Origin: Kondoa subrosea
Lineage: Eukaryota
Assembly (NCBI GenBank): GCA_039545335.1
Contig: BCIN01000001.1
Coordinates: forward strand, 2,669,136-2,733,135
Length of the DNA stretch: 64,000 nt
Direction of reading: 5' to 3'
Shown: piece after piece, positions 11,542 through 56,917 of the stretch
How the letters are laid out: the number at the start of each line of letters is the position of its first letter
How positions within the stretch are numbered: the stretch's first letter is position 1
Notes under the pieces: generated by a model
What the model saw: only the letters and a program-made list of their open reading frames with translations
What the model was told of the DNA's origin: nothing
Databases searched by the model: none
Program-made: the position numbers and the translations under genes

Positions 11542-14215
11542 ATGGGTCTTCTACGTTCTCCGCCTACTCGAATCCCTCAGCCTGTGCCTAGTTTCACATC
11601 ACCATCACGTCCAGTTCCTCAAGCCCCTTCTCTTCAATCTAGACCTTACAATGCTTCACCTGCATGGAGGAATAAGAAATCTGTTACTGGAAGTGCTGGA
11701 TCAGATTCTGATCAAAGTGAACAAACAGTACAACCTGCTCAACCTTCACCTATCTCCCCTCCTATATTACCTCAACCTACTACTTCCGTACAATCACAGG
11801 ATATCTTACAATTACAAGTAACCAATGCTAATCTCTCTACTCTATTAGCACAAACTCAATCTTCTAACGAATCTCTGAAATCGGAAATAAACGAACAGAA
11901 AAGAGTAACGGAAGATCAGAAACTTTATTACGAGAACCAATTATCTATTCTTGCTCAATCGAATACTAAAGAATTGGCGGAATTGAGAGAAGAAGTTCAG
12001 AGAGCTAGTGCGAAAGCTGATTTTGGTTTGGAAGAAGAAAGGAAAGCTTTGGAGGATGAGAAAGCGGTGTTGCATCAAGAAAGGCAGGATTTAAAGCGGG
12101 AAAGAGGAGTAATACTGCAAGAGAAAGAACGTATGTCCAAGGAGAAAGATCAACAGCGAATCACACTAGAGAAAGAAATTGAAGCGCATCATGTCGGTTT
12201 GATGAAGGAGAAAGAAGAACAAGTTGAGCGATTGCAAGATCATGTCACTGAACTGGAGCAAATTAATCGAGATATCCATCGACAATTGGAAGAAGCTCGG
12301 CTTGACCAGGATTTCTTGCTTGGTGGATTTGCAGAGAAAGAACGCCTTGCGAAAACGGAACTTGGTCAGTAATCTTCTGCCTGTTTGGAGACCTTTTCTG
12401 ATCCTGTGATGCCGATGTTTATAGCTCGAAGTCAAGCGGAAACTACTTCTCTTCAAACTCAGCTGAACAAAGCCAGAGTATGTACTTTTTTTCCTTACTA
12501 AGCTACATAATTCTGATACTCTCTCATCAGTCACAACTCACTAAAGTCAGAACCTCTACAAATAACACTCTTACTACTCGTTGTTCAGATCTAGAAAAAT
12601 CCTTAACCGATTTATCAGCCCAACTCACTTCTTCCGATACTGCTCGTCGGAAAGCCGAGCATCGCGTACGAGAACTCAACACAGAATTAGAACTAGCTCA
12701 TCAACAATCCCAACAATCTACCACCCAAAGTCCGAATTACGAAGAATTGGTAACGGAATTGAAATGCACGAGAAAAGAAGTGAAGATTGCTGAGAAACGA
12801 TTGGAGGATACAAGAGAGGAGTTGAAGAGATGTAAAGCGGAAAGAGATGTAGCTTTCTTAAAAATTCAGGAATTGGTTGAAGATAATGCAGAGTTGCAAG
12901 TACGTTCATTTTGTCAGAACTGCTTTTCCTTTTCAGCGCTAACAAGAGATCTACTCAGAATGAGCTGGAAGAAGAAGTCTCGAATAGTAGAGCTCCTTCA
13001 GTATTAAACCCTACAGCTGTACTACCTAAGAACAGGAAGACAGCAAATGTCTTTCGCTCGCCAGCTAGCAAGATCCCTCCATCTGCTTCTCAAGAAGATA
13101 CTTCCCAAACGACAAAGAAAAGGAAACGTCCTGCTAAAGAAGTTGAGAATGCTGCTATACCATTACCTTCCTTGAGCAAAAAGCCTAAAGTCGACACCTC
13201 GAAGCAAAAGAAAAAAGAAAGGATTGAGATAGATTTATCTGATTCCGATGACGAAGAAGAAGAAGAAGAAGAAGAACCTGTTCCGATAGTCAAGAAACCT
13301 AGAGGTCGACCCGTCAAGAAAGATAATAAGAACAAAGCCGAAGCAAAAGAACAACCTGCTAAAAGTCGAGCGAAACCAAAGCAGAAAGTATCGCCTCCGA
13401 CTGTTGAAGTACCACCCGTAGAAGAAGAAGATGGTGATGAGATGGATGTCGAAGAACCTGCTCTAGTGAATGAAGATATAGCTGCCCCATCGGACCAGGC
13501 AGAAGAAGCTGCTCCACCTATTGTCAAAAAACCAAGGGGACGACCGCGAATTCATCCTATTCCAGAACCAGTTCCCGAAGGTACTCCTAAACGACCAAGA
13601 GGTCGACCACGCAAGATTATCGATCCCAACGCAGTAGTAGATGATACCCCTAAACGTCCAAGAGGTCGACCGAGCAAAGACAATAAAGTTATTTATGAGA
13701 AAGGCCCAATGTCGCAAGCTACTAGATCTGCTCAGAAAGAAAGAACCAAAGAGAAAGATATTGTTCCGGAAGAAATTGTAGATGATGATGAAGAGGAAAT
13801 GGTCGAAGAAGCGCCTCCTGCTAAGAAAGTCAAAGGCAAAGCAAAGAAAACAGGGAAAGATCAGGCGGACGAGGAATCAACTCGGCGTCCAGCAGCTGAA
13901 TCTTCTTTGGCTATCAAGAAGGCTGCTAAACCTCAACCGGCGAAAGTCAATAAGAGAGCAAAGAAATCTTCAGACGCAGCAAGCGTTACTTCTTTACCTG
14001 AACCATCTTACAAGATCATCAAGAAAGCTTCTGCAGCGTCTCTTCTCGCTCAAGAACACTCGCAATCACCAGAACCAGATTTACTCAAGACGAAAAAGAA
14101 GAAGATCAAACTTGCTTCTGGTGCATCTGTTGAGAAGTGGGCGAAGGCGTGGGAACAGCAGGGAGAGTCAGCTCTTGGTTTACCTGTACATCTGAGTCCG
14201 ATCAAGAAAAAGTAA
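11542..14215 (+). CDS. coiled-coil protein with four AT-hook motifs in a Lys/Glu-rich C-terminal region
   Basis: Long heptad-rich exons (11542-12900). Last exon carries KKPRGRPVKK, KKPRGRPRI, PKRPRGRPRK and PKRPRGRPSK. Confidence 0.75.
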
Positions 14216-22753: not shown

Positions 22754-25177
22754 ATGGCTTCATTAGCACATTTCAAGACTCCTGCTGTCGGTCAGTGCTC
22801 TATCGAACCTGTTGGCAGCGTTTCTGATCCGATTAATACCTTAGAGAACGAACCCAATGTAGGCTCTGCCGTCCATCTTGAGCTTGAGAGCGCGCACTGA
22901 CAACAGATGACGCTTGATTAAAGGTTCACTATCTACCTGGCTCGCCTGAACGTAAAGCTGTCGATGCTGCGATCGCCGAATACCGCAAAGCTGGCACCCT
23001 AGAAGTACCTTGCTGGGTCGGTGGTAAAGATAAGTAGTCTGAAACCTTCCCCGCCCTCAAATATCCTATGTTGATCCTGCTTCGGTATCCACAGGTGAAG
23101 ACCAGGTATACCTCCTTCTCGCATTTAGACAACACGCACAAAATCTGATTTCATCTGCTGCTCTCTTTCAGCAACCAAACGCTTCAGAAGAACCCAGGCA
23201 ACTACGAAGAAAATGTAGCTTCAGCTCATCAGGCTGACGAAGCTACAGTCAAGCTAGCTATCGAATCAGCTCTTGCAGCTAAGCGCGATTGGGAAGATAT
23301 GCCATGGAACGATCGAGCTGCGATCTTCCTCAAAGCTGGCGATCTCTTCGCTGGCAAGTACCGCGCAAAGATTGTTGCCGCTACCATGCTTGGTCAGGGA
23401 AAGAATTACTGGCAGGCCGAGATAGATGCCGCAGCTGAAGTATGTCACTCCTCATACTTGGCTACTGAAGTGCTGATCGACTGACTTTAGCTGATCGACT
23501 TCCTTCGCTTTGGAGTCAAGTACGCTGAAGAGGTCTATTCCATTCAACCACCAAAGAACTCAAAGGGTGTTTGGAATCGAGTCGAATATCGACCACTTGA
23601 CGGCTTCGTGCTCGCAATTACACCATTTAACTTCACTGCCATCGCAGGCAATCTGCCAGCTGCTCCAGCTATGCTTGGCAATGTTGTTATCTGGAAACCT
23701 TCACCTCTGGCCATTCTGTCAAACTATCTGATTCTCCAAGTTCTGCACGAAGCTGGTCTGCCAAAGAACGTGATTCAATTCATTCCCGGGCCGCCAGAGA
23801 TGATTTGCAATACTGCTTTCCAGCATCCCGATTTCGCTGGCCTTCATTTCACTGGCTCGACATCTGTCTTCAAACATCTGTGGAAAGAGATCGCTCAGAA
23901 CATCGATACTCTTAAATCTTACCCTAGAATTGTTGGCGAGACGGGAGGAAAGAATTTTCATCTTATCCATTCTTCGGCGGACGTGCAAGCTGCTGTTTTA
24001 CAAAGCATTCGCGCCGGGTTCGAATATTCAGATACGTCTCGCACATGCATGTCTACGAAAGCTAAAATAGGTTACGTAGATACGCCAAAAGTGCAGCGCA
24101 TTAGGACGCTTATACGTTTCCGAATCGATCTGGGAAGAATTCAAGAACCGATTGCAGACTGAATGCAAGAAAATTACGCTTGGAAATCAAGAAGAATCGC
24201 ATTTTATGGGTCCAGTTATGTGAGTCAGCATCTCTAAGCTCTGTCTATTCCCATGATACCTTGTGCAATAGCTCAAAGCAGTCTTACGACAAAATCACCA
24301 GTCTGATTGAAAAAGCCAAGAAAGCTGGAGGGGAAATCATTGCTGGAGGCGGCAGCGATATGTCTACTGGGTTCATGATCGAGCCTACTGTCATCCTTAC
24401 CAAGGATCCTAAGAGTATCACTATGGGTATGTTGAGAGTATGCCAATGCCGAATTCTGGCTGATGTTCTTCCCTTCAGTCGAAGAAATCTTTGGCCCTGT
24501 CATTACAGCGTAGGTCAAGTATCTCTCCAGTGTCAACTTGGTGTGCTCATGGGCATATGTCTCTCTTGATTGTTAGTTATGTCTATCCCGACAACGAATT
24601 CGAAGAGACTTGCAAACTGATCGACGAGACAACCTCTTACGCATTGACTGGCGCCGTGTTTGCCCAAGATCGATCTGCTCTAGTCAAGGCTTCTGCTTTG
24701 TTGCGATCTTCCGCTGGTAATTTCTACATCAATGAGTAAGTGTCCCTAAGCTGCTGACAGGTCGAAACCTAATGAGCGTGTAAAGCAAATGTACTGGCGC
24801 CGTGGTAAGTCACACTTCTTATTATTTGTAGCGAATGACTCAGATCTTGCCGGCGCAGGTTGGACAACGTGAGCCGGTCTCTTTGAGTTGGGAGTAATGT
24901 ACTGACCGTTTTCATAAGAACCTTTCGGAGGTTCTCGCGGCAGCGGAACTAACGACAAAGCGGGAGGTATCTACCTTACCAGCAGATTCCTGAACCCTCG
25001 ATCGAGTAAGTCGGATGCCCAATGATTATGACATGGCTAATGTAACGCGTACTTTGTAGTCAAGGAGAACTTCATTCAGTACGTAATGCACGCGCATTCT
25101 TCAATACAGAATAGCTAAATCGACAACTCTATTCTACCAGCCCTGACACTTTCTTATACCCTAGTAACTCCCAATAA
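22754..25177 (+). CDS. PUT2: delta-1-pyrroline-5-carboxylate dehydrogenase
   Basis: ATMLGQGKNYWQAEIDAAAE, ITPFNFTAI, HFTGST, VGETGGKNFH, EYSGQKCSA (across an AT-AC intron), EEIFGPV, QQPFGGSRGSGTNDK. Confidence 0.96.
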
Positions 25178-30094: not shown

Positions 30095-31210
30095 TTCGTT
30101 TTGGCAAAGGAGTGCGGTGTGAAAAGAGTGTGAGTGTGTCGTTCTGTTGAAGTGTATTGAAAAGCAGTGTTTGTCGTGAAGCAAAGCCAAGCAAGCAAGC
30201 AGAAATATTGTCACCGCGCAACGACATTCTCGCCGACTTTAGGCGTCAAAACAAACGATCCAATCGTGGGTAGAAAGGTATCGCCATCGGTGCAGACCGA
30301 GCACAGAGTAAGATGCACCGCTCTTGCGTGCACCTCATCTTGCAAAATGAGGCGCGCCTCTGGGCACGAAAGTAGAATAATCATAACGAAAGCGGAATGA
30401 AGTTCAAGCCCAGACTTCAGAGACAGCTCTACTTCTTCGCTCGAGCTATATGGAATGAGCGAGGTATTTTCACGAGCACAGATAAGGGGAGACAGCGTCG
30501 CTCATTTGCCACCTATGCGAAGTAAATGAAGTTAGACCTCAGCACAAAGCTAAGGAGTAGCATTTAGCCCCGTGCCACTTGATGCTCCTGGGCCTTTGGA
30601 GGCGGTACAGACAGAAAAAGAGCCACAGGAGATTGACTGGAGCAAGATTGGAGCTTCGTTGCCAGATCTGTTGAATCGTTTCATTTCACCTCCAACCATG
30701 CTCGTTCGAAGCGAGTGGTCAAAATTGGTTGTATTTGCGGTCAAGCTGCGCGAGACGAAGATGCACACGAAGATGGAGGTAGTAAGTACATGATGGCCAA
30801 ACCAAAAGACAAATGCAATGGTTATCAGATCAAGCTGGCCGGATCCATCTGGCAGCGGCGTGTCACTACTAGATCACTACAAGCATATGGCCCGTGGCAA
30901 AGCACAGCTGTACTCCGTAAATCAGCGCTGTTCCGTTTCTCAAGTATCTGCTGCTCTGTGCTTTGCGCTCCCTCGGGAAAATTGTCTCACCTTTGATAAT
31001 GTCTCTCTGTTCTCTTCTGCCGTGCTTGGGGAGATCTGATTGGCATTCTCGACAAAGGGCTCGGCTGTGGTCTCTATGACGCTTCGTAAAGCGGTGCGCT
31101 GCTTTTACCCGGGCGAACACAGTCTACTCTGCGCTTCTTTACATCTCTTCCCTAATCTACCAGCAACTTTGCAAACGCTCAGAAATGAATAGAGCACCTA
31201 TCAACTACTA

Positions 31211-34200
31211 ATGAATTCAGATTTACACTTGCGAAGTCTGGCAGCAAGCCAGCCAGCGGCGCCTCTACGCCGAGCTGTTCCTATTCCGCGAACATACAAT
31301 CTCTTTGGAGCGGATAAGGCTACTACATCACTGGCGAGATCTCCTCTCGCGAGAGGTTCACCTCGACGACCCGCCTCGCTTCCCATGGCCCAAAGTTTTC
31401 CGCCTAGAACGCGGCCTACCGATGCTCACTTTACTTCTGTGCCTCCGCCGCTTGGTTTAGGACGGGCAATGCCTATTCTTCCGGTCAGATATTTCGGTTG
31501 ATCGTGTTCACAGCTATTGATGCACAAAGTAGCCTCGTCCGCAGCCGCAAGCAATTAGGCCTCGTCCGCTAGAGCATCTGCGCCCTCTGCCTCCTGTATC
31601 CTCTTATACGCACCTCCCATATTCCCGTGCTTATACAATCTTCTAGCCACCTTTTGGACTTCGCCCGACTAAATCTTCACCTGACTTGAAGCAAGCTACC
31701 TTGCCAGCCTCAGTGAGCTATCAAATACGTCTTGCATGTATGAATTGAATTTACTTTGTTCAGTTGGAAAAGGACTATCAAAAACCTAATATGAAGACGG
31801 TCGACGCGAAGAAAGAAAAGAAAGATGCCACGGATAAGAAAGCAGATGACAAGAAATCAGAGGATAAAGGGAAAGAACAATTTGAGAAAGACAAGAAAGA
31901 TTCAGAAAAGAAAATAGCGGATGATAAGAAAAAGGCAGTAGGTCAACCAATTAGGAGCAGTCCAAACTCTCGGCTGATTTTCACTAGGACGAGGATAAGA
32001 AGAAAGGTGAAGAATTCGTCAAGAAACAAGCTGACGATGCCAAAAAACAAGCTGAAGAAGCGAAAAAGAAAATGGAGGAGGAAGTAAGCCTCGGGTTGAG
32101 AGAATCGATCTATAACTGATAGAGAGAGATAGAACAAGAAAGCTATGGCTGCTGGTCCAAGTCTGACGGTTAGTCTCGCTGTTTAGTTCTTAATTTTACT
32201 AATTTTAAAGCTCAGAGCATGATGGTAAGTAAGCGGAAGCTCCAAAGGATCTACTCTCAATGAATATAGGGCGCTCCACGTCCGATGCTTCCGGATCTGG
32301 CTCCTGCTGCGTGTGTTATGTTATTAGCTTGATTTGGCGTGATCGCTGATCGGCCATTTCTGTACAAGCCCACCTGCTCCAGTGAGTCTTCTGGACTATA
32401 TCGGGCCTTATCTGAATCTGTTGCTATATAGCCCGCTGCGCCAGTCAGTAATTACGAATTTCTAGTTTACCGTCTGATAGTAGCTACATAGGCAGCTCCA
32501 CCGGCTCCAGTGAGCCAGACATATACTGAACTCCATATTTGCTAATAGAGCTGCTATCTAGCCACCAGCGGTAAGTCGGTTTGTGCATTTCTGATCGTGT
32601 CTGATCTGCTTCGTTATCAGCCTGCACCACCGTACGTAGAACTTGCCTATGCTGATGTGCATTATTTGATTTGATCGTGGTCATTACAGACCAGCTGTAA
32701 GCACTTTCAAGATGTGTCCTATTTCGCAATCTCTGAAATCATTTTGACTTAGGCTGCTCCACCTGTCAGTCAGTGCTCTTGTATGACCTGAGTCTGATTC
32801 TGATGTCAGACTTCATTTTAATGTAGCCACCTGTAAGTGCTCTTGTATGATTTTATCATCCCAGACTCACCTTGATCGTAGCCACCTGTTTGTCTTGGCT
32901 CCTTCTGCCTTTCGTGCTGATCTGAACTTTATTCTTGGTAGCCTCCAGTCCGTTCGGCTTTCTTCATGTAGGGTTGCTTCTGACTTTTTTTCTAGCGTAT
33001 GTCAAAGGCCTCTTCCGTAGCACTCATATCTACGCCTTTGATTAATAGCTCCGCCGCCGCCACCTCCCCCTCCACCTATTCCGTAAGCTCGCTGCAATGC
33101 TCGCAAGACTTATGCTGAAATAGTGTCGCTTGGAATCGTCAGGCCTCCGTAAGTGTTTGGTTTGCGTGATCTGCGTATATACTGACATACTGACTTAGTC
33201 CTGTGAGCCTATCACGCAGTCTGTCTAGCTGTTACTGATTTGCTGGTGATTTCAAAGCCACCGTACGTCCAAGCTTCTGAAATTTTCTAATATGGCATAA
33301 GCTTACACCCTTGATGCTGTAGCCCACCACCACCTGCAGCACCGCCGAAGGCACCAGATCCACCTGTAAAGTTCATACCAAGATTCCGGACTTGCGCTGA
33401 TCCCTGTTTTCGTCTTGTAGAAGCCGGTATGCTGGCTTGATCAACCTTTGGAGATCTCTACTAATGTTGCTGTGTGTTCATAGCCAACGCCAGCCGCTCC
33501 AGTTAGCCTACCATTTCTTGTCGATGTCTGGGCGAGTCTGACTATCTCGGGTATTCAGGCTGCCGCTCCCGTTCCTACTCCAATTCCCGCGATGGTCTAT
33601 CCTTGGGCGGAAATAATGCAACAGCTTGCTCCTGCTCTGATGCAGCAAGCTCAGATCAAGCCTGCGCAAAATGATCCTAAGGCAATCGAGGATTCTGTAC
33701 ATCAGCACAAACCGCAAGAAAAGCCTCAAGAGCACAAAACCTCAGTCGGTTTAATTCGTCCTAGCAGTGTGACGTAGACTCATTGATTTGGTTCAGCGCA
33801 ACGTGCCTTCGGCAGGACGCTTTCGCAAAGTATGGTCATTCCAGGCTCAATGTACACCCTCTAATATTGCTCTGTAGCTCTCCGACGAATGGAATCCCAT
33901 GCAAGACATGATGGAACAACTTGGCGTGCCGGAGCGAGATCGGTATGGTAGCGTACATGTCATAACGAGCCTGTATTGATTGATTGTCTAGGCCCAGTAC
34001 CGGTCAACCGTCTCGGAGAGTCTCTCCACCATTTCATCATGCCGATTTACCTCAAACCAGAGCTCCAGGCATCCCTGCTTTTGGTCAGACCCCACGACAA
34101 TTCTCGCGGTTTCCAGTAAGTGAGCCATAGGCCAATAGGCTCCACGTGCTTATAGGTTTGCCTAGCAGGAGGCGCCCCTGCAAGCACCTATTTTGGAAGA

Positions 34201-36061
34201 CTATGGCCTTCCAAGTTCCGACCGGTCTCGTAACGCTACGAGTGATGTCCCTGAATTGGCAGCAGAGCCACAGAAAACTACATCAGAGCAAGCAACGCCT
34301 TTTAATATCGATAAAGAAGTACAGCAACCAGTTCTCTCAGTCGCAAGCGAGATGTTGCAACCTCTCGCCAATCCTGCTTTACAAAGCACTGTACCTCGAC
34401 ATAGACCACCTGATCCGAACGTGGTACCAAACAATTCTTTGCCGGAAAGGCGTTTCATTTCCCCAAATACCGACTTTGCAGATCTTCGCGAAGTATCTCC
34501 TCAGAATACGCCTAGGTAGATCATGTGAGAGAATACTGTAAACTTAAACTTATTGAGATTCCAGATCTACCGTGTACGAAGCTCTGCCCGAAAACCAGGA
34601 TGGTACATACACCGCAGTCGCTAGCAATGCGCAGAATGATTTGTGAGTCAGTCGGTTTATGATTTGATTTTGCGTTGAGTAGATAGTAATTAGGCCAGCT
34701 GCTTATACTCCTCTTGCGTGAATTGCCTTTTTTGCATACTGTACAAAACTGATTGCGTACATAGGCCTCACACCAAGCCTCTGCCATCTCTTTTTCCTCG
34801 CGACTTTCATAACTTCTTCTCGCCGCCGAAAGGTGATTGGCGAGAGTCTCCAAAGGTGAACGACCCGCATATATTTCTGCCTCGTGTCTAAACAATCTGT
34901 TTTCAGTCTACGCCTAAGCGGCAAAAGCAGTCAAAACTACACACTACTACACTCTATGAGGATCCTTTTGCATTGAATCAGGACGAGCACGCCCAATATG
35001 TAAAGGAACCAAGTCATGAAACCAAGGCAGGCGCTTTTCATGTCAAAATGTTGACCCGTCTGACGCATCGCAGAGCAACTGGCTAGAACCAGAGAACATT
35101 GCTCACGGCTGGCGTACTGCACCTAATACTCCAAGATCTCATAATGTGCATCAAGTGATTAAGTTAACTTTTAGTACGGATGCGAGCTGATGCGGCACGC
35201 AACAGGACCTATTAGATGTCTTCAACGTGAATTCAGAAGAGACCGAAGGGGCTTTCGAAGCCGCCATTCAGATGAACAGTCACCGTCGACCTGCTTTGAC
35301 TTCCGCTCAGCCCTTATATTCTCAGGCACCCGATGACTTGAACGATTTCCAGTTCTACGAAGCGCCATTACATGCAATGCCAGTAATACTCGACCCTGGT
35401 CCTAGTTCAGCGTGACTATATGGCAGCAATTACTAGTGAGCACATCATCTTCAGCCTTGATTGAGGGCAGGCTGACTTCGCGAAGTCCGTCTGTCGAGAC
35501 TCTGAGTGCTGTGTATCAACCAGATCCGCATGAAAATGACCCTCTTCAGCACGAAATGCCATCCTATCCTTCATCTATTGAACCATTTCATGTGAGTCTC
35601 GATTGCCTCGTCCAGCGAGTCACTCTGATGTGTATACGGTATAGCTTGGGTGCCTGAGCCTTACTCTTTCCGTATTCGACCATTCTATCGCAAGACAGCC
35701 AAATGTTGTGCATGAACAGGCTAACAGCGTAGGCTATCCTTCGGTCTATCTCTTCTCTGGCTCCCTTCTAATCTGTGAACTGAACAATCTTCAGGCTATT
35801 CCACATCATGACACAGTTACCACAGTGCCGGATACATTCCAATCTATCATCGAAAGACCGATCTCGCTGGTCAATCACATTACTTCTCGAACGGATGCGC
35901 TTGCAGACTTGCCACACTTTGACCAGTCAGAGCTTTGGGAAGTTCCTGCTCAACAATTGATGCGGCATCGACTGCATCAAACAGACGATCTCGAAGAGAT
36001 GTGTGAAGAAGAAACGTCTTTCGAGATGGGAGTATGGAAAGGATCAGGACCTAGGCATTAG
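31211..36061 (+). CDS. orphan Pro-rich, intrinsically disordered protein encoded by about 40 exons, including a microexon array
   Basis: A continuous reading frame can be built through about 39 GT-AG introns, mostly 44-62 nt. It joins ORF fragments 31211, 31764, 33592, 34193, 35227 and 35708. Lys/Glu/Asp-rich helix followed by a poly-Pro tract. Confidence 0.75.
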
Positions 36062-36182: not shown

Positions 36183-39100
36183 ATGGCAGAGCAGCTTGTA
36201 CGTCAAGCAAAGAGCTATATTGGAGTGATGATCCAATGTTTTGAGCCAGAAAGCGCAAATGCTTGAAAGCAAGCAGCAAGCTCTCCAGTAGGCTCAAGCA
36301 ACCTCCTGATATATCTGTTAAACCCGTGCTCTGCCTTTGATAGGGCTAGCCAAGCCAGAAGAGCGAATTTCCTGGGTCAAGCCTTCGAAGCATTGCGTGC
36401 CCTTCGAGAAATTGGTGTTGCTGTGCAGATCCCTTCAAATTCGACTGGCAATGAAAGCGAGGCTGCCTTCATTCAACACTTTCAAGAGTCTCAAGAGTTG
36501 GTCTTCTCGCTTATGCCAGATTTATATCTCACTTCTAATGCTCCCTTTGATCTTCGCTTAGAAGTGTGCTGGACTATCTACCTACCGAGCTGCCAGCTAT
36601 TGAGGAAGCGCCTATAGGCTCTCCTCTAACGTCTATCTCTTCCAACGATGAATTGGACAAGCCAACGGAACCAGAATCAACCCAGGTTCAAGCAATGCTG
36701 ATTGATACACCTGCAGTCTCGCAAGCGCAGGATGCTTCCACACAAGAAGATCCTGCTAGACCTGTCTCACCCACTAGTGCATCAGTCGAAGCAGCTCTGC
36801 GTCCACCACCGCGAGAAGTCTTTCCGCTTCGACAGAATACTACCGCCAGTACTTCACAGTCTCAGGTCACTAACTCTGAAACTCCAATCACATCTATATC
36901 ACCATCTCTGCTGTCGATGAAGCCTCATCCAGTAGCTTCTACTTCGTCCAGAAGAGCTGATACAAACTGGCGCCCAGCATCTCTACCGTTGCGCTTCGAG
37001 ACCAAGCTACCCAAGCTTCCACAGGTTATACTTCGCAACAGACCTCAAGCAGGTGGACTGTTGCGAAAGAAGAAAGAACGAGAGAAAGATTCTCGGAGCA
37101 GCGGATTGAGCGGTGGAACAGAACTCTTCAAAATGGGTCTCTTGCAACCAACGCACTGTCCAGCCCGCAACATGGTTGGACAGCCGTCAGATAGTAAAGC
37201 AAGAGTGATCAGACCTGGGAAAGTCGTCCTTACGAGCGATTGGTCTGTTGCTATACAAGAATTGAAAGGATTGAGAGCGATGGAAAAGATTGAGCAGCTC
37301 AAGAATGAAGGCAGATGGGCTTTTAGGCAGATCAAAAAGCAGAAAGCACCTTCCATTATCAAGTCACATCGAGATTACATGCTCGACGAAATGGTGAATC
37401 TATAGTATTGACTTCGTTGAATCTATACTGATACTTAGCCCTCAGAAATGGCTCCAAACTGACTTTAAGCAAGAGTCTCGGTGGAAAGTCGCAAGTGCCT
37501 TTTCTATCTCCACCGCGATTCTGGCATATCATGCTGCCTCACCCGAAAATCGTAAAGCCATGTGCATATCGGTCCGTCGTACGCAATTTATCACCGAGGC
37601 AGAAGAAGCAGACGACGTCATCAATACAGAAGAAGTCAACGATGCAATGGATGTTGACCAGCCGATATCAGCTTCCCCTTCCAAAGACGCTCCCGAGCCA
37701 AGTCAAAACATGCCACCTTCTTCCACCTCAGCAAATGCTTCGGCTCAAGTCACTAGTCAAGGGCAGCCTGCCTCGTCTGCCGGTGTTCCCACGAAGAATG
37801 CCTCGGTGTCTTGGGAACAGCTCATACACCTTCGCTCACCATTGTTCCAATTGCCAGATACTGCTACTACTATAAGTCTATCACAGCTTCCGCTGGACAA
37901 GGTTTTACCACCAGACGCAGCTGAAAGAACAAATACAGAACTGCTCAATGGCTTAATGCCTGATATTCCTCTCTATGAAATGTCCCCAGTCCCTGCGGCA
38001 AATGATTTGAATCGTCTTGATCGACGCTTTGACGAATCCTCAGTCAATTATAATCGTATGACCCACGTTTCGAAATGGTTTGACAACAAGCCCTTCTTGG
38101 TCAGTACACTCAATCCAGCAAAGAAACTCAAATTGGACCGAACATGGGGTGATTTGGCCGATATTGGAGTCGGTGATGATCCCCGCGAATATGATCTTAG
38201 ACCCGATACGACTGCTTTTGGACCGAGTCGGTATAGTCTTCTTTTCCAGACGTGCCGAGGTTTAAGTGTTATTCTTCAGATCTCTTCAATGGCCGTAGAC
38301 CAAAAGATCTCGCACCTGGTCTCAACATCGCAACGCCTAAAGAGCCACCTAACGCAAGCTCCAGGAATTTGGATTGGTCTGAAGCGGAAGACAACCTATT
38401 GCTAATGATGTCGAAACAATACTCGCACAACTGGCATCTCATAGCGGAAGTCTTCAATAGTACTACTGTTCGTGTGCCTACTGATCTGCGGCAACCTTGG
38501 GATGTTTATGATCGGTGGAACAAGAGATTTGGTCCTGGTAGTCAACCTAATCTCAATACTGATGGGAAAGAAGCAGCAGGAAATCAAGCTAAGAAAGACA
38601 AAGCGAAGAAGCAGACTGGGTTTGACGGTACGAAGAAGGAGATCAGACATCTCAGTCTGTATGAAGCGGTTAGAGCGATGAGAGCTCGTAGAGATGCGCA
38701 ACCGCCTAAGATGGCTCGTAAGCAGTTTTGTTCAAGAGCAAGTATCTAGCTGAACTTTGTTTGGCATTAGCAAACGCACCTCGCAAAGTCAACCTGTCCT
38801 CGCATGAAACTCACACTCAACCACTTCGACCCATCTTAACGCCTATTGAGATCAGCAAGTTGAAAGGAGAGAATGATCGGCAGCAAGCAGTCCTTCGTCA
38901 ACAGCAGCTCATGCTCCGTCAACAGCAAGCCGCTATGGCTCACCAATTCCAAATGCAACAGCAGCAGAACGCTAGACTGCAACAGCAGCAAATGCAACAA
39001 CAGCAGGCTGAAGCTCAGAACGGGATGCAGAATGGTTCGCAAGGCCAACCTTCGCAACAAGGCGTAAGTGACTTCAATTCTGTTCTGGATCAACAAGCTG

Positions 39101-51839: not shown

Positions 51840-53892
51840 ATGGTTGAACAGAATGAGAGGCAGCCTTTACTAGGCAAAGGGCCAGAGAGATCCTTGACCT
51901 CGGCGCAGAAGCAGAGGATTGCGTTGGTGTGCTGTATTTTGAGATTCACGGAACCTATATCGTTTGTCTCCTTTCGGACTCGCTGTACAGCTGGAATGGC
52001 TGATAAGTCAATACTACAGACTTCTGGTCATCTTCCGTAAGCGATGAAGTGTCCGATCAGTGTAGATCTGATCTCATTGACCGAATCTAGCATTTGTCAA
52101 TCAAGTGAGTTAAAGCTGCTTTGACACACAGGACATGCTAATGTGGTTGCTAGATGATCAAAGAGCTACAAATAGCGAAAGATGATTCACATGTTGGCTT
52201 CTATGCAGGAGGTTTAGAAAGTCTGCTGTCATTATCTCAATTCTTGACAGGTATGTTCGCTATCTGACTGCTCAACAATCTTCTGATTTTCTCTCAGTCT
52301 TTATATGGGGACGTTTGGCCGATAAGATAGGTAAGATTCTCCCTAAATCTACATTCCCCGATTTTGATTTGTCACAGGGAGGAAACCTGTGCTATGTCTC
52401 GGCACGTTAGGAGTAGCCATATCAACACTTGGCTTTGGATTCAGCAGGAATTTCAAAATGATGGTCGCGTTTCGATGTATAGGGGGATTTATGAACGGTA
52501 ACGTGGGAGTTGCGCAGAGTGTGCTTGCAGAGGTATGCGGTCTTCCCAGAGGCTCTCTCATGTAGCTCATGAGAAGAGCAGATATCGACAGAAGACGATC
52601 AAGCGAGAACACTTTCATACCTTCCTCTAGCTTACGCGTTGGGCTCCATAGTAGTCAGTCTGCTTTGCTTGATTTCGTTTACCGTCTAAAAGCTTACCAG
52701 GGTCCACTAATTGGCGGCTATCGTAAGCTAATGTAACGCTTGATGGCGACACAGACTGACCCATAAATAGTCGTCCATCCATCGAATACCTTCAAATCGC
52801 TAAAACACTCAACCTTCTTCATTGACCATCCTTATGTCTTACCTTGCGCTGTGGCTTCTGGTATATCCTTTATTAGCTTTCTGATAGCTTTGTTCATGCT
52901 AAAAGAGGTTAGTTCTGTTTTTGGCTTGGAAGCATTTGCTCATATAGTGTCCAGACCTTGCCACAAGATCAACATAAGAAGCAAGATAGCTCGGCAGAGC
53001 CAGAAGTACCAGAAGCGAATGAGGCCTTGGAAGCTACCAAACGATCTCGTGTATGGATCGTCCTTGGCAACTTTGCTCTCATCGCTTTGTGCGTTCACTT
53101 CATTGTCTACTCGTGAAATATCTAATTTCACAACCAGACTGGGGACCGGTCTTGGCACAGTACTTCCTCTCTTCTCCTTTACGCCAACTCGACTAGGTGG
53201 ACTGGCCTTTTCTTCATCTAGTATAGGTGTTCTCGTTTCTCTCTCGGGAGCCTTGACGATGGTCATTCAATTCTTCGCTTTCCCTCCATTGGAACACAGA
53301 CTAGGCAACGTCAAACTGTATCGCTTTTCGGTAGCTTTCTTTCCTTTGGTCTTTCTTGGATGGCCAGCGATTGCAAGATTGGCTAAAGGCAGATTCGAGA
53401 TGGGTCATTATCCCGATGCGGCTATGTGGATTGCTATCACGATCAATTTATTACTATCAGGTCAGTCTATCGACTTTTTTAATGCGCATCCGTGCTGATC
53501 TGCTCGACAGCTATTGCCAATTTGGCCTTTTGTAAGCTGACAGCCAATCATCTCTACTATTTTGACTGTATATACAGCTGCCAACATGGTGAATGTCTCT
53601 GATCTGGCTCCATCTCGACATGCGCTCGGAACAATAAACGGTCAGGCAACTACGACTCAGAGTATATCAATTCCGCTGATCTGTTGCATTAGGTCTTGCT
53701 CAGTCAGCAGCTTCCTTCATGCGAGCTATCGGTCCTCTCTCCATCTCTTCGCTTTTCGCCTACGCAGCAGGAAAACACGAATTAGGCGGCTATCTTATCT
53801 GGCTCGTTCTTTTCGTGGTTTCACTCGTTGCTTTCGGTGTCAGCTTCTTAATAAGAGATGAAGGCGCAGAATGGAGAGAGGAAGACAAGTGA
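51840..53892 (+). CDS. major facilitator superfamily transporter (DHA1/ZIFL-like)
   Basis: LRFTEPI, WGRLADKIGRKPVLCLG, GFMNGNVGVAQSVLAE, GPLIGGY, LGTINGLAQSAASFMRAIGP. Confidence 0.9.
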
Positions 53893-56199: not shown

Positions 56200-56917
56200 A
56201 TGTCTACCACATCCAAACCAACACTAATGCAAAAACTCAAAGCTAAGATATGTAAGCCAGTCTTTGCCTTCGAGTTTTCATCGCAGCTTATCGCAGCTTA
56301 TATGTTTCTCTTTTCAGTGGGGAGATCTGTCAAAGCGCAAAACAAGAGAACAGAGCAGGAGACAGAAGCCAAAGCAATTTACGAAAAGCAAACAGCTCCG
56401 GTCATCTTCTCTCAAAAAGACTACGCTATCAAAGAAAACCCCGTCTCAGTCGAAGGAACCACCGAAATACGTAAGAGGAAAGAACAAGATCTGGCAGCAA
56501 AGGAAAACTACAAGAAGCAACGAGCCCAAGTCATTGCCTCGCAAAAAGCAGTCTCTAATGCCGATGATGGGTCTGCCACTATCTGTGAGCTTTTCTTCTA
56601 CTTCTACTTCAATGAAGGCTCACTCTGCTTTCGATCCAGTATTCTATGAAATTGTCGCCAGCGAAGCGGCCAATAATCAATCACAACTACCTGCTGGTTG
56701 CCACTCTGGTCATCATTCGTCTAACCATGGTCATCAAACAACTGCTCATTCTGGTCACCATGCCGCTGCTATAGATTCTGCCCATCACACCTCAGCCGCT
56801 TCTCATTCTGCTCATCACACAACCGCTCATTTTGACCATCACTCCCCTGCAGCAGATTTTGGAACTGCAGCAGACTATGGTGGCGGAGGTGATTATGGAG
56901 GTGGCTGCGACTCCTAG
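56200..56917 (+). CDS. small orphan His/Gly-rich protein, tandem paralog C
   Basis: Three exons giving MSTTSKPTLMQKLKAKI...NYKKQRAQVI, a His-rich tract, then GGGGDYGGGCDS*. Confidence 0.65.

Follow-up and report, generated by a model that had tools for sequence, protein, structure and literature searches.

In a stretch of 64,000 nucleotides (nt) from Kondoa subrosea (GenBank assembly GCA_039545335.1, contig BCIN01000001.1, positions 2,669,136 to 2,733,135 of the forward strand; the whole stretch is called the window), the plus strand at 32169-33558 probably holds a fungal microexon array. About 20 exons, most of them tiny, and 21 ordinary U2-type introns would here build a polyproline tract within a predicted gene that starts at about 31791. 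Positions are counted from the first letter of the window.

The region was rebuilt from the letters of the window. Each of the 21 intervals starts with GT, ends with AG and is 45-62 nt long, and with this all coordinates of the original prediction, which had proposed 21 GT-AG introns of that size and 20 exons totalling 267 nt, were reproduced. The exons measure 9, 41, 13, 12, 18, 9, 11, 7, 12 and 6 nt (exons 1-10) and 6, 6, 1, 34, 6, 4, 5, 43, 6 and 18 nt (exons 11-20). They range from 1 to 43 nt, and 15 of the 20 have 13 nt or fewer. Introns make up 81% of the 1390 nt, which corresponds to about one intron per 4 codons and is, to our knowledge, among the densest intron packing known. The exons contain 53% C, the introns 19% C and 37% T. 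Of the 21 introns, 15 are in phase 0; the exon length is divisible by 3 in 11 cases and asymmetric in 9.

After removal of the introns, frame 0 of the array reads through 89 codons without a stop and encodes 55 prolines and 20 alanines. This frame continues that of the exon 32133-32168 and enters that of the exon starting at 33559, and the proposal of a single Pro/Ala frame linking the flanking exons was thus borne out. The proline codons are CCA (26), CCT (16), CCG (10) and CCC (3). As had also been claimed, the region has almost no long open reading frame (ORF): none of those crossing it in the six frames is longer than 84 amino acids. Retention of any one intron leads to a premature stop for 20 of the 21, and intron 21 alone keeps the frame open when retained. 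When exons were skipped in silico, each of the 11 symmetric exons left the frame open, and the loss of any of the 9 asymmetric ones caused a frameshift with a premature stop before 33744. Tandem Repeats Finder reported no repeat array in the region, no Rfam family was found over 31000-35000, and there is no other polyproline tract in the window. A minus-strand reading was rejected, since the pieces would then be GGN codons and the "introns" would run from CT to AC, with 84 amino acids as the longest minus-strand ORF. Stwintrons were rejected as well because every one of the 21 intervals carries a complete set of GT...AG ends of its own and neighbours lie at least one exon nucleotide apart.

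The strongest internal evidence for the array is the coherence of its codon phase. For all pieces of at least 5 nt, the offset of the CCN or GCN codons within the piece was compared with the phase given by the summed lengths of the upstream exons. The two agreed in 16 of the 17 testable exons, where chance would give agreement in 1 of 3 per exon; the exception was the first piece, which does not code for proline. The earlier reader had possibly picked the splice sites by frame, and introns 11-17 were therefore examined as the part free of such a choice. These introns were chosen identically by a parse that used splice signals only and no coding information, and the CCN phase was kept at every junction among them, including those at the exons of 1 nt (32996) and 4 nt (33199-33202). 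The third codon positions vary freely, which points to selection on the protein rather than to a DNA repeat.

The splice signals were first counted with a strict intron pattern (donor GTNNGY, branch YTRAY close to the 3' end, acceptor HAG with A, C or T as H, 40-80 nt). In the 1400-nt segment from 32201, 20 strict donors were found, compared with a mean of 3.6 on the plus strand of the window and 11 in the next-highest segment of that length without overlap of the array. Within the 64 kb the array is the sole chain in which intron-like units follow each other closely with C-rich spacers between them. For scoring, weight matrices were built from 27 introns elsewhere in the window, 7 of them homology-verified and 20 taken from ORF junctions. 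With these matrices the mean score was 16.4 bits for the array introns, 17.6 bits for the training set and 5.6 bits for all 8848 GT..AG pairs of 45-62 nt, the values being rough because the ORF junctions are noisy and the training set includes some false introns. Seventeen of the 21 array introns scored above the 95th percentile of all pairs. Single positions gave the same picture: 20 of the 21 introns carry a G at +5 (23% of the pairs), 15 a CTRAY motif 8-35 nt from the 3' end (12%) and 19 a pyrimidine at -3 (43%).

A positive control was available in the same window with the P5CDH gene at about 22900-25060. It matches fungal proteins, and the window is eukaryotic and intron-rich. The best named matches are from the basidiomycetes Tulasnella and Sistotremastrum (about 70%), and some from Glomeromycota reach about 73% over less of the query; the protein P0002 is 91% identical to the P5CDH of the window. 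The organism was accordingly treated as a fungus of basidiomycete-like character. The gene contains two microexons on the plus strand, 24786-24804 (19 nt) and 24859-24868 (10 nt), flanked by introns of 50, 54 and 50 nt, and both are required for a gapless alignment to P0002 over the conserved C-terminal part. As these tiny exons are verified by homology, the organism splices tandem microexons between introns of the size found in the array. Two of the P5CDH introns at the microexons end with AAG, like introns 3 and 17 of the array. The homology-verified introns of the window (n=7) are 50-67 nt long, and no long intron is among them.

Two further observations were made in P5CDH. An apparent AT-AC intron of 52 nt lies at 24032-24083 (plus strand); it starts with ATACGT and ends with GATAC, and its junction encodes the conserved catalytic-cysteine motif. 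With this intron removed, the match to P0002 was gapless with a score of 1139, whereas the best GT-AG alternative scored 1105 and disturbed the motif. Its ends presumably represent the U2-type with A...C in place of G...G and not the U12-type. In the 5' part of the gene (23017-23175, plus strand), an apparent further tiny exon of about 11 nt is found near 23094-23104; for the intron before it, no canonical donor was found that keeps the frame and matches P0002.

Several results weigh against the array as described, and they are given here and in the following paragraphs with what bears on them. Chance was assessed by searching for a stop-free in-frame path through an insert of 1390 nt in dinucleotide shuffles and in natural segments. 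Under lenient settings (introns of 40-120 nt with at least 9 bits), such a path was found in 37-44 of 100 shuffles and in 36 of 97 and 42 of 100 natural segments. Since lenient controls often yield an open path, the fact that the region resolves into GT-AG introns is weak evidence alone. The other two frames of the spliced array contain one stop each; the spliced sequence is so C-rich that all frames are nearly open, and the open frame is therefore also weak evidence. What the controls did not reach was the number and quality of the introns. The array has 21 introns and 350-355 bits, and all controls stayed at or below 17 introns and 219 bits. When introns were restricted to 45-62 nt, a path was found in none of 100 shuffles and in 7 of 100 natural segments, and these paths had no more than 9 introns and 133 bits, compared with 21 introns and 350 bits for the array. 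The array thus exceeds the chance expectation.

The individual boundaries differ in firmness. In the following list of the features, "phase" marks exons supported by the codon phase and "signals concur" marks introns 1-4, which the signal-only parse placed identically, as it did introns 7, 8, 11-17 and 21.

31791-31937, plus strand: putative first coding exon with ATG at 31791, Lys/Glu/Asp-rich (ORF 31749-32087; end set by the intron parse)
31938-31987, plus strand: intron, 50 nt, 21.4 bits (intron parse)
31988-32083, plus strand: coding exon, Lys/Glu-rich (ORF and intron parse)
32084-32132, plus strand: intron, 49 nt, 15.7 bits (intron parse)
32133-32168, plus strand: coding exon directly before the array, 36 nt (parse, frame)
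32169-32215, plus strand: array intron 1, 47 nt, 17.5 bits, CTAAT branch (signals concur)
32216-32224, plus strand: microexon 1, 9 nt
32225-32269, plus strand: array intron 2, 45 nt, 13.5 bits, YTRAY branch not found (signals concur)
32270-32310, plus strand: exon 2, 41 nt (phase)
32311-32368, plus strand: array intron 3, 58 nt, 15.9 bits, AAG acceptor (signals concur)
32369-32381, plus strand: microexon 3, 13 nt (phase)
32382-32431, plus strand: array intron 4, 50 nt, 17.3 bits (signals concur)
32432-32443, plus strand: microexon 4, 12 nt (phase)
32444-32491, plus strand: array intron 5, 48 nt, 15.7 bits; acceptor uncertain, 32483 favoured by signals alone
32492-32509, plus strand: microexon 5, 18 nt (phase)
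32510-32561, plus strand: array intron 6, 52 nt, 12.8 bits; acceptor uncertain, alternative 32568
32562-32570, plus strand: microexon 6, 9 nt (phase)
32571-32620, plus strand: array intron 7, 50 nt, 21.1 bits
32621-32631, plus strand: microexon 7, 11 nt (phase)
32632-32689, plus strand: array intron 8, 58 nt, 21.7 bits
32690-32696, plus strand: microexon 8, 7 nt (phase)
32697-32752, plus strand: array intron 9, 56 nt, 9.6 bits (weak); boundary uncertain
32753-32764, plus strand: microexon 9, 12 nt (phase)
32765-32826, plus strand: array intron 10, 62 nt, 20.2 bits; 5' part similar to intron 11
32827-32832, plus strand: microexon 10, 6 nt, CCACCT (phase)
32833-32881, plus strand: array intron 11, 49 nt, 16.3 bits; 15-nt block in common with intron 10
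32882-32887, plus strand: microexon 11, 6 nt, CCACCT (phase)
32888-32941, plus strand: array intron 12, 54 nt, 16.6 bits
32942-32947, plus strand: microexon 12, 6 nt (phase)
32948-32995, plus strand: array intron 13, 48 nt, 19.1 bits, CTGAC branch and T run
32996-32996, plus strand: microexon 13, 1 nt (C), required for the CCN phase between exons 12 and 14
32997-33048, plus strand: array intron 14, 52 nt, 19.8 bits
33049-33082, plus strand: exon 14, 34 nt, longest CCN run (phase)
33083-33142, plus strand: array intron 15, 60 nt, 15.6 bits; another solution in the leave-out model
33143-33148, plus strand: microexon 15, 6 nt (phase)
33149-33198, plus strand: array intron 16, 50 nt, 14.7 bits; model-dependent
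33199-33202, plus strand: microexon 16, 4 nt (phase)
33203-33257, plus strand: array intron 17, 55 nt, 16.8 bits, AAG acceptor; model-dependent
33258-33262, plus strand: microexon 17, 5 nt (phase)
33263-33322, plus strand: array intron 18, 60 nt, 18.4 bits; alternative acceptor 33339
33323-33365, plus strand: exon 18, 43 nt (phase)
33366-33420, plus strand: array intron 19, 55 nt, 9.3 bits, weak GTAAAG donor; alternative donor 33371
33421-33426, plus strand: microexon 19, 6 nt
33427-33483, plus strand: array intron 20, 57 nt, 14.6 bits; alternative acceptor 33493
33484-33501, plus strand: microexon 20, 18 nt (phase)
33502-33558, plus strand: array intron 21, 57 nt, 18.1 bits; frame open if retained
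33559-33744, plus strand: downstream coding exon, 62 codons, without detectable homologue
33745-33796, plus strand: next intron, 52 nt, 19.6 bits; retention leads to a stop at 33775-33777

A parse that combined the ORF constraint, codon log-odds and intron scores recovered all 21 array introns, but this parser is permissive and over-splices the long ORFs downstream of 34500. When the P5CDH introns were left out of the training, 18 of the 21 were recovered and introns 15-17 were replaced by two others; in a control, the leave-out parser placed 5 of 6 verified P5CDH introns correctly. The parse with splice signals only found 14 of the 21 exactly and used nearby alternative sites for introns 5, 6, 9, 10, 18, 19 and 20, which is in keeping with the earlier expectation that gene predictors are likely to miss the structure. 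Introns 9 and 19 are weak with 9.6 and 9.3 bits. In addition, a rival parse with 21 introns, in frame and stop-free, reached 355.5 bits of summed signal, slightly more than the about 344.5 bits of the earlier reader's parse.

It is therefore conceivable, though we consider it unlikely, that a short-intron array is real and has a different exact structure, with nearby alternative sites in use or some of the tiny exons unused (those of 4, 5 and 6 nt at 33143-33262, or those at the weak introns 9 and 19), so that the tract would be shorter or partly non-proline, or would occur in isoforms that arise by alternative 3' and 5' sites and retention. The deviations of the signal-only parse at 7 of 21 introns, the rival in-frame parse, the change of introns 15-17 in the leave-out model and the in-frame retention of intron 21 fit this explanation. 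So does the pattern in Coprinopsis cinerea, a mushroom-forming fungus and the single basidiomycete covered by a long-read study, where, in the part of the published report available to us, alternative splicing consists mainly of intron retention (67.5%), 3' sites (23.5%) and 5' sites (8.2%), with exon skipping at 0.5% (PMC12230235). Such structures, however, break the Pro/Ala phase, which agreed in 10 of 16 exons in the alternative parses compared with 16 of 17 in that of the earlier reader. The rival 21-intron parse encodes only 35 prolines instead of 55 and has a frame-shifted middle, and several alternatives need a second AG past the first or an intron of 40 nt, which is shorter than all 7 verified introns (50-67 nt). 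Taken together, the array as a whole is robust, and its predicted boundaries are uncertain at six or seven sites and at the three tiny exons within 33143-33262.

The homologue searches also count on the opposing side. A phmmer search with the 72-residue translation of 33559-33774 gave no match among 1.84 billion representative proteins, and for the exon 34169-34516 no match was found among longer proteins. A scan of JGI metagenomes with 33559-33744 detected no relative; it returned only the three loci L001-L003 with 52% identity over 29 residues. These were taken as chance, probably low-complexity matches, at least one of them (L002) lying on a human-gut metagenome contig, and they were not used. 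The exons flanking the array showed no Pfam family. Phase coherence could, moreover, have come down from a once continuous exon and persist in a locus that died recently.

These points bear on the quite improbable case that 32169-33558 is removed as one or a few long introns or is a decaying relic, with the proline pieces as leftovers outside the main mRNA. Consistent with it, the frame stays open when 32168 is joined to 33559, no orthologue was found and the phase coherence could be an inherited one. Against it, 21 sets of donor, branch and acceptor of normal quality would have to persist unused, and the 7 verified introns of the window are 50-67 nt with no long one among them. An intron of 1390 nt would be exceptional in a fungal genome with short introns.

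Whether the predicted gene extends beyond these exons depends on the downstream region of the same strand, which holds an HSA domain from 37446 and a Myb/SANT domain within 38237-38746. A SANT/Myb domain behind an HSA domain characterises Eaf1/Vid21, the scaffold of NuA4. The Vid21/Eaf1-like exon had one protein match only, which was from an agaric. The permissive parse joined the array through the HSA/SANT region in a single frame. An in-frame stop is found at 36059-36061 and an ATG at about 36184, about 120 nt further on. This would fit two separate genes, which would be unusually close if so. A separate start of the HSA/SANT gene at about 36184 would fit because the distance to the HSA domain matches the expectation from the agaric homologue.

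Other features of low complexity or with closely spaced intron-like units were seen on the plus strand of the window. Five intron-like units form a smaller chain at 51962-52377, with spacers of 14-45 nt, upstream of a membrane-protein-like ORF at 52767-53498. An open frame of 442 amino acids at 12887-14215 is Lys/Glu/Pro-rich and has repeated PRGRP-type motifs resembling AT-hooks. The open frame at 56228-56917 has a His/Ser/Ala-rich low-complexity tail with repeated HH pairs, followed by a Gly/Asp/Tyr-rich end.

In the favoured structure, each array intron would be recognised by its own donor and, in most cases, by its own CTRAY branch site and YAG acceptor. In fungi with short introns the intron is the recognition unit (intron definition), and the size of the exon is therefore not limiting for recognition. 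At the exons of 1-7 nt the neighbouring introns would be removed one by one, because acceptor and donor complexes cannot assemble together on exons this small. The predicted protein would consist of a Lys/Glu-rich N-terminus, a Pro/Ala tract of about 89 residues and disordered sequence. Its putative N-terminus upstream of the array is Lys/Glu/Asp-rich and, as read from the translation, without a hydrophobic stretch. Judged by its composition alone, the tract is likely a polyproline-II spacer or a docking tract for profilin, SH3 or WW domains.

The original prediction had gone further and suggested that many exons are symmetric units that could be skipped to tune the length of the linker or its number of PxxP sites, in the manner of the schistosome micro-exon genes. 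This found little support. Eleven of the 20 exons are multiples of 3 and each can be skipped with the frame open, but the other 9 lead to a premature stop when skipped. Short introns under intron definition do not favour exon skipping. With skipping at 0.5% of the alternative-splicing events in the available part of the C. cinerea report (PMC12230235), regulation of this kind is very unlikely. Hardly any weight can be given to an array that is spliced as an untranslated, many-intron 5' leader with the start at the ATG at 33592 or further down: an in-frame ATG does lie 11 codons into the exon starting at 33559 and the upstream exons have neither a homologue nor a Pfam domain, but CC or GC as the first two bases with a free third base are kept across the junctions, as expected under selection on translation, and the open frame of the upstream exons begins with an ATG and is in phase with the array.

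As to the origin of the array, it may have grown as introns were duplicated locally along with a few proline codons, through slippage or unequal exchange between the CCN repeats at either side; the introns of the duplicated units would have diverged afterwards. The adjacent units 10 and 11, each a CCACCT exon with its intron, contain an identical block of 15 nt and further matches. Among 210 intron pairs theirs is the only one to exceed the 99.9th percentile of shuffles, and it is in line with such a duplication. The remaining 19 introns show no similarity to each other, and the lack of a repeat array in Tandem Repeats Finder also speaks against this origin. A blastn-short search of the region against the window returned only the 15-mer of introns 10 and 11 and two chance matches of 14-15 nt; no similar intron copies were found elsewhere in the 64 kb. 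With one alike pair in 210 and no copies elsewhere in the 64 kb covered by the search, introners are an improbable explanation. The case for a duplication origin, read from the similarity of these units, is thin. That the polyproline tract of about 20 microexons grew by CCN-seeded duplication of units is accordingly put forward as a doubtful possibility. Introns would then have proliferated by a route peculiar to low-complexity coding DNA and different from both introners and intronization.

Once confirmed by transcripts, the array would provide a natural test of the minimal exon size and spacing under intron-definition splicing, packing 21 introns into 1.4 kb and placing exons of 1, 4, 5, 6 and 7 nt back to back. 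It would also offer a concrete locus for intron multiplication inside repetitive coding DNA, where one adjacent pair of units looks duplicated. Such a region would probably be broken up or skipped by standard gene predictors and spliced aligners, and the proline-rich linkers of intron-rich fungi may therefore be systematically mis-annotated.

Several known systems resemble the array in part. Schistosome micro-exon genes have symmetric exons that are mixed by skipping. Their introns are up to 5 kb long and their proteins are secreted, according to the available part of a report (PMC10526429). Like the array, they have a coding stretch that consists mostly of many very short exons, and a disordered product. 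The array differs from them by its introns of 45-62 nt, its 9 of 20 asymmetric exons and an N-terminus that, by translation, does not resemble a signal peptide, and the proposed likeness to these genes therefore fails on intron length, exon symmetry and secretion. The aphid bicycle genes are an animal effector family with long introns. They can be recognised by their many microexons and not by their sequence, as the accessible part of the study states (10.1101/2021.09.24.461719 / PMC9168663). The gene of the array, in contrast, is not assigned to any family.

For the multiplication of introns, Zhuo and colleagues reportedly described in PNAS in 2007 how introns arise from tandem arrays. The introner-like elements of fungi are another way by which many introns could arise repeatedly, as far as the available part of the source goes (PMC4457414). 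Unlike both, the array has only one adjacent pair among its 21 introns that is detectably similar. A constitutive 1-nt exon between canonical introns, needed for the reading frame, has been proven in APC11 of Arabidopsis, again as given in the accessible part of the paper (PMC4674806). That exon is isolated, from a plant and proven, whereas the 1-nt exon described here is a member of an array and predicted.

Microexons of 1 nt in a basidiomycete and microexon-rich genes in schistosomes and aphids are thus already known. In the open-access papers that were searched we found no description of a fungal run of about 20 microexons that builds a low-complexity tract; the supplements of the C. cinerea study (Figure S2, microexons) were outside this search. 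A close known case comes from this fungus. In the available part of its long-read annotation, 1,165 gene models have an internal exon of at most 15 nt and 13 exons have one nucleotide (PMC12230235). These constitutive microexons resemble those of the array, as they too are internal, measure at most 15 nt with a minimum of 1 nt and lie between short canonical introns, and gene models break when they are missed (PMC12230235). What the available text describes are genes with at least one microexon, with an enrichment of P450 genes, and not a run of about 20 exons that builds a low-complexity tract (PMC12230235). In conclusion, with 15 of its 20 exons at 13 nt or less and GT-AG introns of 45-62 nt with ordinary scores, the predicted array would fall within the microexon class of the basidiomycetes.

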